Of a stretch of 64,000 nt of DNA, positions 516-62,012 are shown piece after piece (position 1 is the first letter of the stretch; each line of letters begins with the position of its first letter). The notes under the pieces are model-generated. The model was not told the DNA's origin. It saw only the letters and a program-made list of their open reading frames with translations, and searched no databases. Origin of the DNA: an uncultured Desulfosarcina sp. (GTDB taxonomy: Bacteria > Desulfobacterota > Desulfobacteria > Desulfobacterales > Desulfosarcinaceae); the NCBI GenBank assembly GCA_963674945.2, contig CAXXWQ010000001.1, forward strand, positions 32,001 to 96,000, read 5' to 3'. A program made the translations under genes and the position numbers.

Positions 516-669
516 TGACGGATTCATAAAAAGTCCGATATCGGCGTTACGCTTCATCCTTCGTCACTGTGGCGTACGATACGTACGCCTCATTCCTCAC
601 GGACTCGCAAGCCTTGATCTCGGGCTTTTTACGAATCCGTCCGAACGGCGACAATTTACGAGATCACCA
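516..669. repeat. Palindromic MITE-like element, GACGG-TIR subfamily, copy A1
   Basis: TGACGGATTCATAAAAAGTCCGATATC ... GATCTCGGGCTTTTTACGAATCCGTC inverted ends plus 3' tail CGAACGGCGACAATTTACGAGATCACCA; close relative at 34954-35106. Confidence 0.9.
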
Positions 670-696
670 ATCGTGAAGTAAATCAAAGGGGGCACG

Positions 697-1101
697 ATGA
701 AGAAAAAGGTGAGTGCGGATCACATCTCAACGCTATTGGGTGTGGGCACTTCCATTGAGGGGACCTTGACCTTTGCAGATACGATTCGACTGGACGGGTC
801 GGTCAAAGGGAAAATCGTATCCAAAGAAGGTACCTTGATTGTCGGGGAAAGAGCGGTCTTGGATGCGCACATCCAGGTGAAAACGGCAATCGTCAAGGGA
901 ACCGTCAGCGGGCCGATCCACGCAACGGAAAAGATCGAGGCCTATGCACCGGCGAAAATTACGGGTGATATTCAAGCGGCCACCATTTCCATCGAAAGCG
1001 GCGTCCGTCTAAATGGAAACTGCCGCATGAACAATTCCGGAAGCCCGCCGGAAAGGAAAAACCCAGCCGAGGTTACCGAATCTGACAAAAAAGTCAAATG
1101 A
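697..1101 (+). CDS. Bactofilin / polymer-forming cytoskeletal protein
   Basis: TLLGVGTSIEGTLTF..IRLDGSVKGKI..LIVGERA..ITGDIQAATISIESGVRLNGNCRM beta-helix pattern. Confidence 0.9.
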   Translation: MKKKVSADHISTLLGVGTSIEGTLTFADTIRLDGSVKGKIVSKEGTLIVGERAVLDAHIQVKTAIVKGTVSGPIHATEKIEAYAPAKITGDIQAATISIESGVRLNGNCRMNNSGSPPERKNPAEVTESDKKVK

Positions 1102-1120
1102 CGGTAACGATAAAAAACCT

Positions 1121-1150
1121 TTGACATGCAAGCTGTGCAGATGGTATAGG
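1121..1150 (+). promoter_or_regulatory. Putative sigma70 promoter of the atp operon
   Basis: TTGACA (1121-1126), 18-bp spacer, TG-G-TATAGG (1145-1150). Confidence 0.5.
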
Positions 1151-1243
1151 CAGCCGGAGTTTGCGCCTGTCGTAACTTATATCATTCACACACAATTTGT
1201 AGTTTTTAGGAACATTTAATCCTACTTTCACGGAGGCTCTTAG

Positions 1244-1669
1244 ATGGTAAGCGTCGATGGATCCATAGTTATACAAATCGTAAATTTTCTGTTGTTGATG
1301 TGGATTTTGAATATGGTCTTGTATCGGCCGATTCGAAAAATTGTGTTGGAGCGGAAAGATAAAGTGGACGGGCTTTCGTCCGGCATCGAAGATTCCGCCG
1401 ACCAGGTCAAGGCGAAAGAAGTCGCTTACGCCGAGGGCATCCGTCAGGCAAGGTCCGCCGGGCAGAAAGAGAAAGAGGCGTTGATCCAGGCAGCGGCGGA
1501 AGAGGAGCGGGTGATCATCGGAAAAATCAACGAATCGGCCCAGGCGGAACTCAAAAAGGTCAAAGAGAATATTGCCCAGGAAGTGGGGGGCGTCAAGGCA
1601 GCACTCGAAAAAGAAATAGACGCATTTGCAGATGCGATAGGACAAAAAATATTGGGGAGGGTTGCTTAA
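1244..1669 (+). CDS. atpF: F0F1 ATP synthase subunit b'
   Basis: IQIVNFLLLMWILNMVLYRPIRKIVLERK N-terminal TM helix plus coiled coil; GGAGG RBS; heads the atp operon. Confidence 0.9.
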   Translation: MVSVDGSIVIQIVNFLLLMWILNMVLYRPIRKIVLERKDKVDGLSSGIEDSADQVKAKEVAYAEGIRQARSAGQKEKEALIQAAAEEERVIIGKINESAQAELKKVKENIAQEVGGVKAALEKEIDAFADAIGQKILGRVA

Positions 1670-2280
1670 TGAAGGTTCCAATTTTCAGAGCAAGGCGCCG
1701 GCACGCAAGGTGGATTTTTCCTTTTGTGCTGATTGCGCTTTTGTTGTTTGGAGGCGCTTTTGTCTTTGCTTCCGAAGGTGGCGGGCACGGGGATGCAGAG
1801 GCCAAGGGGTGGGTGAAAACAGATACCTATCGGGTCATGAATTTCGCCGTCCTGGCAATCGGTCTCTTTTTGATCCTCAAAAAGCCGGCTGCCTCGGCGC
1901 TTAGCGGCCGGATTCAAGAGATAAAGGAAGAGTTGGAGGATCTCGAAGAAAAGAAAGCGGCGGCCGAGGCAAAACTGGTGGAGTACGATGCCAAAATGGC
2001 GGAACTGGACGGCGAGGCCAAGACCATACTCGATGAGTATGTGAAACAGGGCGAAGCCGCCAAGGCCAGAATTCTGGAAGAAGCCGAAGCAGCGGCTGAA
2101 AAACTCAAGGAGCAGGCCAGCAAGAACATCGAATCCGAATTCTTGCAGGCGAAGGCGGATCTGAAGGCTGAAATCGTCGAAAAGGCACTGGCTAAGGCCG
2201 AGGCGATCATCAAGGAAAAAATCAATTCGGAAGACCAGGAAAGACTGGTTGACGAATACTTACAGAAGGTGGTGGCATAG
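1669..2280 (+). CDS. atpF: F0F1 ATP synthase subunit b
   Basis: RVMNFAVLAIGLFLILKKP..., coiled coil, C-terminal DQERLVDEYL. Confidence 0.9.
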   Translation: MKVPIFRARRRHARWIFPFVLIALLLFGGAFVFASEGGGHGDAEAKGWVKTDTYRVMNFAVLAIGLFLILKKPAASALSGRIQEIKEELEDLEEKKAAAEAKLVEYDAKMAELDGEAKTILDEYVKQGEAAKARILEEAEAAAEKLKEQASKNIESEFLQAKADLKAEIVEKALAKAEAIIKEKINSEDQERLVDEYLQKVVA

Positions 2281-60186: not shown

Positions 60187-60510
60187 CTATGCGGCTTCGC
60201 TCACAGAAACACGCGGGGTGATATTCTCGCGCTCGGCACATGCTTTGATAACCGGAACAATGCTCTCCAATGTCGGGTTGCCGGAAGGTCCGAGCATCCG
60301 GCTGATGGCCGGTTTGTGTTTTTTCAGCTTTTTGCATATTTCATCCATGGCCCCGGTGGCGTTGATGTAGTCGCGAAGCATCAGCCTGCCGGCCGTGCTT
60401 TCGCCTTCCAGTATCATGTTTATTGCTTCGACGATCAGCCCTTTTCGAAATTCGGGATCGTTTTCGGCCCTGGTGACAACCTGCTCTTTGAATTCCCTTG
60501 AAAGCGGCAT
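60187..60510 (-). CDS. Addiction-module antidote-type HTH antitoxin
   Basis: LSREFKEQV..R...DPEFR..L..EA...GE...GRLMLRDYINAT.....SRMLGPSGNPT pattern. Confidence 0.85.
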   Translation of the reverse strand: MPLSREFKEQVVTRAENDPEFRKGLIVEAINMILEGESTAGRLMLRDYINATGAMDEICKKLKKHKPAISRMLGPSGNPTLESIVPVIKACAERENITPRVSVSEAA

Positions 60511-60646
60511 TACTTTGCTCCTTCACGCTTCCGGCGCTTGTAATCGGCCCAATATGCCCGGGCCTTCTCTATTTCCGAAATCTGAGACTTTTTCGCCCCG
60601 CTTCATCTTCATAATAACGAACTTCAATCTCATCCGGTTTGTTCAT
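60510..60646 (-). pseudogene. Internally deleted RelE/ParE-like addiction-module toxin
   Basis: N-terminus MNKPDEIEVRYYEDEAGRK joined out of frame to C-terminus KSQISEIEKARAYWADYKRRKREGAK*; stop overlaps the antitoxin ATG (TAATG). Confidence 0.75.
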
Positions 60647-60860
60647 TTAATTAACATATGTGTTATTGTTGCCAACTTAAAGGGAAACATTAACGGAACC
60701 CTAACAAATGCAATGTTGACACTGAAGGTGCAAAGCGAAGCTGACTTGGTAAGAATCTGATGTGATATTGTGGCTTCAACGAGTGGCTGATGAACTATCA
60801 CGGTAAGCCGCTGCATTTTTTTGTGGTATAACCAAAGCCGGCCGCTCTGGTGGCGGATAT

Positions 60861-61262
60861 TTACTGATGAGAAGCCATATATTCAGTGACGGCTTGAGAA
60901 AGAAGACCAGAGCGACTTGAACCATATTTTTTAGCATATTGATCTACTGTCCTTATAAGCCTTTCCGGCATAGTGATATTTATACGTCTCGATTTTAAAG
61001 AGAGCTTACTTATGTCGACTTGCACCAAGGCCCAAATACCATCTTTGTAATCTGGATTCGCCCTATGTCTTTCTATATCGGATGGTGTCGGAATTGGTTC
61101 TGAATCAATCAGCATGCCTTCAATGTGGCATTCAGCAGCTTCCTGAGCCATGCTGATTGCCTCCTCTATGGTAGAACCAGCGGAAAAACACGCCGGTAAA
61201 TCGGGAATGGCAACACTATAATCAGAAGTAGGATCTTTGTGAATTACAATAGGATATTTCAT
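60861..61262 (-). CDS. hicB: HicB-family antitoxin (HicB plus RHH)
   Basis: MKYPIVIHKD...YSVAIPDLPACFSAGSTIEEA, RINITMP..L...VD.......SRSGLL. Confidence 0.93.
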   Translation of the reverse strand: MKYPIVIHKDPTSDYSVAIPDLPACFSAGSTIEEAISMAQEAAECHIEGMLIDSEPIPTPSDIERHRANPDYKDGIWALVQVDISKLSLKSRRINITMPERLIRTVDQYAKKYGSSRSGLLSQAVTEYMASHQ

Positions 61263-61264
61263 TT

Positions 61265-61452
61265 TTACCTCCAATTCCATCCAGCGTTCCGTAAAATATT
61301 GCGCAGTGTACCAATGGCAATATCCTTCTTGGGATGTGGAACAGTAACTTTTCCCTGTTTTACAGGATGTTTAAATTGATGGTGATCACCTTTTGTGTGG
61401 TGTAATTGCCATCCATCACCCGCAATCTTTTGATTATTTCTCGGCTGTCCAT
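61265..61452 (-). pseudogene. hicA: HicA toxin with a 1-nt frameshift
   Basis: Adding one A in ATC-AAAA-GATTGCG gives MDSREIIKKIAGDGWQLHHTKGDHHQFKHPVKQGKVTVPHPKKDIAIGTLRNILRNAGWNWR. Confidence 0.88.
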
Positions 61453-61833
61453 GTGATGTGTATAATCACGCATTAGAGTTTTTTATGTCAATTCTGCGGT
61501 GGAGATACTGATGATTCAAGAACGTTATTCTATGCAGGAGGGGCGCCCATTAAAGGGCGGGTCATGTGTTTTTCCAGGGACGTGTCGCACCAATAGATAT
61601 ATTTGACATTCCCTTATTGTTCGATTTATAGTTCTTTTATTCTTGCCTCATGTGGCGTTCTAATCACATTGAAATAATTTGACTTTAAAATCGATCAGTT
61701 ATCATATGTTCACGATGAAATGCTGAGAGCCCTTCTACTTTCAGTGTCGCTGCTGTATTACCGATCACTCCTTTTTTTGGTTCCATTGAAATCAGGTATA
61801 GCGTAATGGGTATGCCTCTCAAATTGTGCATAT

Positions 61834-62012
61834 ATGTCTCCTGATGTGTTTACAAGCCATCCCAAAAAAACCTTTGGACTCAATATCTTTGTTGGAGGCA
61901 AATTTTAAATCCTCAAAATACTTTAGTATGTCTGCGGTTTAAAATTTGCCGCCGCTGCAATCTTGAACCCAAATCCCTTTTTTGAGGCAGCTTGTAGCAC
62001 ATCAGGAGACAT
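61834..62012. repeat. Palindromic element (B1-type TIR, copy B4) inside an outer 15-bp inverted repeat
   Basis: ATGTCTCCTGATGTG..TACAAGCCATCCCAAAA ... TTTTGAGGCAGCTTGTA.CACATCAGGAGACAT; inner stem GGAGGCAAATTTTAAA / TTTAAAATTTGCCGCC. Confidence 0.85.

Follow-up and report, generated by a model that had tools for sequence, protein, structure and literature searches.

Intergenic mini-transposons with the ends of three insertion-sequence families share a core with a predicted fold, likely related to ERIC, in an uncultured Desulfosarcina

The window analyzed here, a stretch of 64,000 nucleotides from an uncultured Desulfosarcina sp., carries eight palindromic repeats of about 150 bases, all of which were present where an earlier note on this DNA had placed them. 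Type A copies, which have IS1182-like ends, include two plus-strand elements: one at 517..668, flanked by the 6-bp sequences AATAGT and AATCGT (5/6 bases matching) and detected on the minus strand by the R1 model (32.6 bits), and one at 34955..35105, between der and rarA. The core of the former lies in a palindrome at 517-641, and in both copies a 27-nt tail ending in a third copy of the terminal repeat places the element ends at 668 and 35105; the tail end of the latter is identical (20/20) to the left end of an IS1182-like insertion sequence (IS) of a sister species. Two further type A copies, on the minus strand, are deleted: 33382..33496, upstream of der, lacks the apical part of the core, and 53857..53927 has lost most of the core, retains both ends and a 7-bp duplication, and supplies the TGA stop of yebC with its end. 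The type B copy, with ISNCY ends, is located at 52647..52787 (plus strand), 3 nt past the lolA stop and between the 6-bp flanks TAACGA and TAATTA; its core (52668..52766; 94.6 bits) has its predicted fold on the minus strand. Type C copies have IS5/IS427-type ends and TA flanks. The one at 29575..29747 (plus strand) contains an inserted 27-nt hairpin module at about 29656-29682, and its first bases are the TAG stop of an upstream ABC-transporter binding-protein gene. What had been described as a copy at 61834 is indeed present, but is really an IS427-ended element at 61851..61996 (plus strand), whose left end matches a 937-bp IS5/IS427-type IS of this genome in 19/20 bases, nested inside a separate, perfect 15-bp inverted repeat (61834..62012); the latter is presumably a hairpin or an older element used as insertion target. 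Finally, a type D core at 38982..39129 (plus strand), whose ends could be matched to no partner IS, has as its first base the final one of the ccsB stop codon and is followed by ahbA.

These copies belong to a family of 237 loci at ≥40 bits in the genome (about 240 copies, the eight in the window among them). Only two loci lie inside called genes; the family is thus short, non-coding, multicopy and intergenic. Its abundance greatly exceeds what chance would give: genome-wide, the two outer motifs were found as a pair 150 times when one mismatch is allowed, with a spacing of 71-74 nt in 118 cases, and a loop-plus-stem descriptor had 48 matches bearing both outer motifs in the genome versus one in a shuffled genome. 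The GACGG type (type A) lacks the TCCTC/GCCTGYGG loop of the proposed grammar, as the earlier note had half seen. Several end types do carry the core, but there is no free mixing of ends, and the majority of core subtypes keep to a single end type: ISNCY ends occur with two core types and IS427 ends with two, and 9 of 17 copies of the type D core are bounded by ISNCY ends at either side.

Three of the end types match three unrelated autonomous IS families. The sister-species IS matching the type A tail is 1.9 kb long and encodes a 577-aa DUF772+DDE transposase, which scored 171 bits with the IS1182 model, below its 270-bit cut-off, and had no match in the present assembly. For type B the matching ISs are ISNCY elements of 1.7 kb (model NF033593), one of them intact in this genome, and type C ends match IS427-type ISs (IS5 model NF033580) in this genome and elsewhere in the order; IS427 and ISDol1 are the subgroup names of these partners. 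Terminal-repeat pairing within this genome alone gave an IS for type C only: it missed the type B partner, which was found through the genomes of relatives, and recovered none for the type D ends. Nor did 30 DDE_Tnp_1 loci include a partner IS for Acidobacteriota-type ends. In the plasmid collection, type A gave a single 36-nt chance match and type D none, and none of nine loci with the type A end motif on viral contigs was an IS.

Target duplications agreed with these assignments. A perfect 6-bp duplication flanked 20 of 69 type A copies versus 1.2% in shuffles; for type B the signal was weak (8% of 61 copies versus 0.6%), the duplicated sequence being 6 bp, not a bare TA, and the same TA-rich 6-mer as that of its ISNCY partner. 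Two identical type B copies in one genome (G251) bear that genome's own IS end variant. The der-rarA site occupied by 34955..35105 was empty in 17/17 syntenic relatives (of 23 loci), and at the lolA-nadA site a core element was present in 5 of 23 loci, with independent type A insertions there in relatives; DNA contigs from four runs contained no clean empty site. With IS-matching ends, matching target duplications and orthologous sites empty in relatives, the repeats are non-autonomous transposons (MITEs), and the partner transposases likely move them in trans.

The core was absent from the bodies of the parent ISs (27 + 21 loci), and coreless stubs with IS ends also exist (L270 and L329). The idea that several MITE lineages carry one structured cassette was therefore supported: the ends belong to three IS families unrelated to one another, and no parent IS has the core. 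Fixed folds with variable stems and strand specificity are typical of single-strand sites, such as IS200/IS605 ends, REP and attC, and one copy sits inside a hairpin (61834). Both observations would fit an enzyme of the core's own that recognizes the hairpin, as HUH/RAYT proteins do with REPs, and inserts the core into IS ends or other hairpins. We regard this as very improbable: the elements duplicate their targets as do the DDE ISs that supply the flanking ends, no gene, whether for mobility or otherwise, recurs beside 147 core loci, and neither of this genome's two Y1 genes has a core in its locus, although a 43-nt type B fragment lies some 400 nt away from one.

The core, as seen on the minus strand of 52668..52766, is predicted to form a rod with a CAAGGC/CAACGC outer loop, a variable stem, a GA-rich inner loop, a G·U pair and an apical hairpin. 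Fold z-scores lay between -3.8 and -12.4. With RNA and DNA parameters alike, 8/8 stretches tested were more stable as the reverse complement. The four middle stems first noticed pair as claimed (15/15, 15/16, 15/16 and 11/11), covariation survived in larger alignments (29/40 pairs; 37/39), and the strand asymmetry of mismatches held as well (75 G·T versus 18 A·C). By eye, a K-turn reading of the inner loop was rejected on account of registers that conflict with the covarying apical stem, and an attC reading for want of a paired GTT/AAC box. Nothing resembling a promoter or terminator was seen in the one copy scanned.

When a covariance model was built with ERIC left out, its top match across the whole K-12 chromosome was the E. 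coli ERIC (E = 6e-6; a sequence-only model reached E = 0.1). Two ERIC copies, at 39.6 and 31.7 bits, aligned in register; only 5 of 13 copies scored and 8 were missed. There was no BLAST-level similarity to the 127-bp enterobacterial ERIC consensus (also named IRU or RU-1; PMC2759123, Table 1a), the best local alignment being 15/16 nt. The core was also present in at least five further bacterial phyla. Hence the family, for which the earlier note had no name, does have a candidate relative: the model match and the loops in common suggest that the shared core is likely a distant relative of the ERIC repeat of gut bacteria.

Covariation had been taken to indicate selection on an RNA or single-stranded fold, but by itself does not prove selection on RNA, since the private changes include 61 two-sided ones, which point to conversion between the arms at the DNA level, and some of the stem covariation may have arisen in this way. 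Nor did resident copies show a strand-specific constraint: private variants were 40 G·T versus 40 A·C, shared variants had a modest excess (35 versus 19), and private mutations hit loops about as fast as stems. Because private mutations lack strand bias, selection likely acts on spreading lineages and not on residents, and the G·T excess cannot tell DNA from RNA, as G·T beats A·C in both. An improbable alternative is that the core is neutral baggage of one ancient MITE lineage, occasionally re-flanked by new IS ends, its stems rewritten by palindrome conversion and its loops kept by inheritance and ascertainment. The two-sided changes and the coreless stubs agree with it, and loop conservation is partly circular because the family was defined by its loops, for which the searches themselves selected, and the structure was drawn from the same sequences. 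However, conversion should erase loops, yet these are kept while the stems show near-zero conservation; AACGC, a motif outside the search pattern, was at its expected place in 111 of 122 matches; ERIC, which was defined independently, retains both loops; and there are some 240 core-bearing MITEs in this genome.

Of 191 copies, 88 were located within 5 nt of a stop codon, and in 77 of these the weaker-folding strand was in the mRNA (opposite orientation, 11), so the strand that folds better is for the most part kept out of mRNA. This orientation bias was seen on both replichores (62:6 and 32:10) and was gone more than 60 nt from stops (46:57). A replication-strand bias away from stops was rejected (49:32; p = 0.07). 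Core copies were stop-flush in 65 of 146 cases, more often than their coreless cognate ISs (9 of 44; p = 0.005) or random target motifs (6-8%). Based on simple ORF calls, 6 of 14 E. coli ERIC copies were stop-flush, all six in the same orientation as here. Copies with the strong-folding strand in mRNA showed no excess of deletion (12/67 versus 22/122), although one might be expected if that strand drove excision, and the age difference by orientation had opposite signs in types A and B. The stop-flush orientation presumably arises by directional insertion, by purging of the strong RNA hairpin, or by both.

Such placement is what would be expected if the core matters as host RNA, the stop-flush, weak-folding mRNA strand being tolerated or useful (for example, through RNase sites gated by ribosomes, a role suggested for the ERICs of Yersinia) and the reverse orientation purged. 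On the same account, which we consider rather unlikely, mismatches might be selected to keep the mRNA strand weak, G·U pairs on the other strand being only their mirror image. Beyond the stop-codon statistics and their E. coli counterpart, this account would fit the orientation-dependent processing of ERIC mRNA described in the available part of a review (PMC2229807) and a weak alignment, on the mRNA-like strand, between the core of a relative and the Rfam family sX9 (RF02228), a detected Xanthomonas RNA (31.2 bits, below the cut-off of 44). Rfam V_AS5 (RF02818) likewise aligned to an ERIC copy at 44.9 bits, below its gathering score; neither family matched any core of this genome, and at gathering score Rfam had no match on the window repeats or on the cores in 18 + 11 loci. 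On the other hand, the private mutations in residents have no strand bias and reveal little loop protection, sites are polymorphic between species, and weakening alone leaves the same loop sequences across phyla unexplained.

We favor, at a probability of about 0.5, the explanation that these are MITEs with the ends of three IS families around one core, likely of ERIC type, moved in trans, the core being kept since a putative factor reads its fold during mobilization. The transposases of the three families would act on the MITE ends, and the core would have changed ends through re-flanking by new IS ends, with tails, nested ends and coreless stubs as its visible traces, while arm-to-arm conversion would rewrite stems in pairs. 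The candidate factor, perhaps a protein that recognizes the loops, would favor copies that keep the fold and would help them to spread and to settle directly after stop codons. The strong-folding strand would be the active form, with single-stranded or cruciform DNA more likely than a transcript. More tentatively, ERIC might be one twig of a cross-phylum superfamily, in which a conserved putative protein would bind the pseudo-symmetric CAAGGC/CAACGC and GA loops and boost or steer transposition to gene 3' ends in fixed orientation with any DDE transposase, making the core a MITE parasite that swaps transposase families. For the ERIC-type cores described here, intact partner transposases can be named in three IS families, and the role of the core is therefore open to a simple mini-transposon assay. 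If it enhances or targets transposition across transposase families, it would represent a new layer of transposon biology and might serve to place insertions right after stop codons. Should it act on mRNA, some 90 genes of this genome would share one 3' element. No account of why the ERIC-type fold is conserved was found in the available parts of reviews (PMC2229807), which describe the movement of ERIC-type repeats as untested.

Compared with known systems, the closest likeness is to ERIC. Like the core here, ERIC is predicted to form a rod, with outer GCGTT/GCCTTG motifs about 60 nt apart, a GA-type inner loop, a short hairpin at the apex and a G·U pair; it too lies between genes, has no coding capacity and sits flush behind stop codons in the same orientation. 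It differs in that ERIC is 127 bp long with a TA duplication and a 2x2 inner loop, whereas the elements here have other ends, lengths of 140-175 bp, 6-bp duplications in types A and B, a mostly 3x2 inner loop, a far wider host range and identifiable partner transposases. GTAG/CGTC REPs with RAYT, to judge from the accessible text of PMC3733652, are likewise multicopy extragenic palindromes, and type A palindromes end in CGTC; however, CGTC REPs have stems of 8-9 bp and loops of 4-5 nt, whereas here the rod is about 120 nt long, CGTC lies within an IS terminal repeat and the duplication is of DDE type. Identity with REP/RAYT was rejected for lack of a 20-40 bp tagged hairpin and of cores at the Y1 genes. 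Four short core motifs were absent from the text-searchable Geobacter and Pelobacter multicopy-repeat supplements (12 of 15 files). The IS1182-like, ISNCY and IS427-type ISs have the same terminal repeats and the same duplication length and consensus but, unlike this family, encode transposases and lack the core. Prokaryotic MITEs such as RUP, Correia, Nezha and Chunjie, as portrayed in the available parts of PMC3184786, PMC2229807 and PMC10969869, are also small and non-coding, with IS-shared terminal repeats, target duplications and empty sites; unlike in those, the interior here is not a remnant of the parent IS, and one conserved fold is common to MITEs of unrelated IS families, of which the literature found, in its accessible portions, gives no description. 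The MITE catalogue PMC11602168 and ISfinder may hold members of this family. MITEs and ERIC are both known, and what appears to be new is a core shared across the ends of different IS families.

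The eight repeat copies described in the earlier note were all found at their places in the window (type A at 517, 33382, 34955 and 53857; type B at 52647; type C at 29575 and 61851; type D at 38982), and recomputed pairing showed the four middle stems quoted for them to be complementary as claimed. In the 7.08-Mb assembly carrying the window (four contigs; window, G000:C1:32001-96000), the outer-motif pair occurred 150 times with one mismatch permitted, spaced 71-74 nt apart in 118 cases. Profile searches of the whole genome, with a threshold of 40 bits, identified 237 separate loci in subfamilies A (the largest), B, D, X and C, and a loop-plus-stem descriptor gave 48 full matches vs 1 in the shuffled genome. 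No Rfam family reached its gathering score on the repeats. Type A was present in 17 of the 21 genomes searched, its own genome counted. Some cores contained small hairpin modules, always at fixed insertion points and in a single orientation: 24 of 28 pattern matches of module I (window 29656-29682) lay within B, C or X cores, and all nine of module II within type A. Such modules may form an additional tier of parasitic elements or may have arisen through recombination. The window also contains a 6S RNA (8089-8268), a HicB-like antitoxin gene (60861-61280) and two adjoining rRNA operons forming a near-identical 5.3-kb tandem repeat (11660-22206), either a real duplication or an assembly artefact. 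A long hairpin with repeat-like arms (27210-27464) is unrelated to the core family, and the adjoining 119-aa open reading frame had no Pfam match.

By all features testable here, the repeats are MITEs. Perfect 6-bp duplications accompanied 20 of 69 full type A copies (1.2% in shuffles) and 8% of 61 type B copies (0.6% in shuffles), the latter being the TA-rich 6-mer made by the type B insertion sequence (IS) (28 of the 35 IS end pairs listed). The der-rarA gap was without insertion in all 17 syntenic relatives (23 loci compared, 6 non-syntenic ones left out), and two identical type B copies in genome G251 carried an IS end variant of G251 itself. In the lolA-nadA gap, 5 of 23 relatives had a type A element, with three distinct junctions, each of them at the stop of lolA, and with every element oriented like the window's type B copy there; in one relative the gap held a stub bounded by ISNCY ends but lacking the core. 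This makes the lolA stop codon a hot spot for insertion: elements bearing the core arrived there independently at least four times, always in one orientation, in addition to the stub (window 52641; loci L322, L324, L330, L332, L334 and L329).

Type C ends matched a 937-bp, two-ORF IS5-family element of the same genome (the 61851 copy agreed at 19 of 20 bases) and related ISs elsewhere in the order. Type A ends matched a 1.9-kb IS in sister genomes G007, G010 and G258 that encodes a DUF772+DDE transposase of 577-586 aa, for which IS1182 was the best family, with a score under the cut-off; tblastn found no match to it in the window's own assembly. Type B ends matched 1.7-kb ISNCY elements (family score above the cut-off), which were abundant in G251 and G252 and had an intact copy in the window's genome. 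The A and B transposases were barely similar (E 0.015). At L267, L269, L270, L361 and L367, the autonomous IS sat in tandem within the target duplication of its own MITE. The genome's largest IS family (DDE_Tnp_1_4 transposase, window 40301-41671; 36 loci in self-comparison) is unrelated to the repeats. Pairing of core and ends was mostly fixed, the exceptions being ISNCY ends, found with both B and D cores, and IS427 ends, found with both C and X cores.

We built a covariance model, R1, from 22 B, C, D and X cores of the window's genome on the better-folding strand, with the structure drawn by hand. In its alignment, both partners varied in 29 of 40 pairs, and pairing held in 86.7% of cells, vs 32-39% when slid, figures biased upward because the structure was taken from the same 22 rows. 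In a larger, 111-row fitted alignment, the covariation anticipated by the earlier note was present in 37 of 39 pairs. Across 27 and 21 IS loci, R1 found the core in flanking MITEs only and none inside IS bodies, where its highest score was 14.8 bits (E 0.35). The core is cargo, separate from the parent ISs, and the tails, nested ends and stubs seen among the elements suggest re-flanking by the ends of other ISs.

Within the phylum, R1 matched 24 of the 81 genomes tested, and an exact core pattern matched at least 119 loci in GTDB. The 80 titled records among the matches listed included relatives of Desulfobacterales and of Geobacter, members of the Acidobacteriota, Nitrospirota, Myxococcota, Phycisphaerae and Gammaproteobacteria, and also one Actinomycetota and one archaeal MAG, for which binning errors are possible. 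The AACGC motif, which lay outside the search pattern, was at its predicted place in 111 of 122 matches among those listed, and all five genomes followed up were multicopy (from at least 6 to at least 48 matches each). Among 52 rows below 75% identity, stems had near zero sequence information and loops were kept, the inner loop being preset by the search pattern. Acidobacteriota-type copies (L144, L173, L179 and L191) were longer and TA-flanked, and seemed to repeat an outer-like loop at a more distal place along the rod; a search for their partner IS among 30 DDE_Tnp_1 loci found none.

Consensus folds were stronger on the reverse complement than on the other strand (-66.7 vs -48.2 kcal/mol for A, -70.1 vs -61.0 for B and -83.5 vs -49.7 for D), and mismatches on that strand were asymmetric as proposed (75 G·T vs 18 A·C). 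Mismatches private to a single copy were even (40 vs 40), those common to several copies were 35 vs 19, and private change was about as frequent in loops as in stems. The 61 private two-sided changes indicate arm-to-arm conversion. Taken together, these patterns indicate that selection for the fold probably acts on lineages as they spread; neutral inheritance of the core with conversion is unlikely. For the earlier proposal of a strand-specific fold under selection, the asymmetry held; covariation alone does not prove RNA.

Placement was analyzed for 191 A, B and D copies with defined ends, using gene calls from our own hexamer model. A stop codon was no more than 5 nt away for 88 of them, compared with 2.4% for random points between genes, and unrelated IS copies lay within 15 nt in 7 of 90 cases. 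Of these 88, 77 had the weak-folding and 11 the strong-folding strand in the mRNA; copies more than 60 nt away were oriented 46:57. The bias was present on both replichores and is not explained by stop supply, since the stop was often supplied by the ends or targets themselves, at either end. When a single classifier was applied to both groups, 65 of the 146 MITEs and 9 of the 44 cognate coreless ISs were near stops (p 0.005), a control weakened by possible purging of larger ISs there. Given this mRNA orientation, an RNA-level effect in the host, like that proposed for Yersinia ERICs according to a review (PMC2229807), is conceivable but less likely than not. What the data establish is the anatomy of MITEs, partners in three IS families, a shared core that the parents lack, a predicted fold biased to one strand, and orientation flush with stops. 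In the preferred reading, a putative factor would recognise the fold of the strong-folding strand, more likely in DNA form, while copies are being mobilised, and would favour those that bear the core (probability about one half). A dedicated single-strand enzyme is a very improbable alternative.

A connection to ERIC was tested with R1. The model, built without any ERIC sequence, gave 39.6 and 31.7 bits to two E. coli K-12 ERICs, which aligned in register and lay on the strand expected, and 15-18 bits to three more, missing 8 of 13 copies; two type A copies of the window's own genome scored 32.6 and 23.7 bits. Over the whole K-12 chromosome, the top two of three reported matches were ERICs (E 6e-6 and 0.024). 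A sequence-only model of the same alignment reached ERIC at E 0.1 only, so the link depends on fold and loops jointly. A second K-12 repeat of about 150 bp (L288-L293; six copies, at 2543676 and five other places), probably RSA, had a near-exact inner hairpin of the core and no outer loop (E 0.7); a literature search found no paper confirming the name. Separately, the Xanthomonas small RNA sX9 of Rfam aligned at 31.2 bits, below its cut-off of 44, with L062:1542-1612 (+), where it covered the 3' half of a core, starting at the apex, on the strand that folds weakly; sX9 may be a processed repeat.

No account of a core common to several IS families appeared in the literature searched, which covered passages of PMC3184786, PMC2759123, PMC2996986, PMC10969869, PMC2229807, PMC11602168, PMC3300014 and PMC3733652 and supplements of PMC2996986 and PMC3543383. 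The published ERIC consensus (PMC2759123, Table 1a) shares its outer motifs and its inner hairpin with the core, and 6 of 14 E. coli ERICs were stop-flush, all six in the orientation seen in these MITEs. The repeats described here differ from ERIC in sequence, ends and length, and convergence may be another explanation of the likeness; on the modelled fold and loops, the core is likely common to ERIC and these MITEs.
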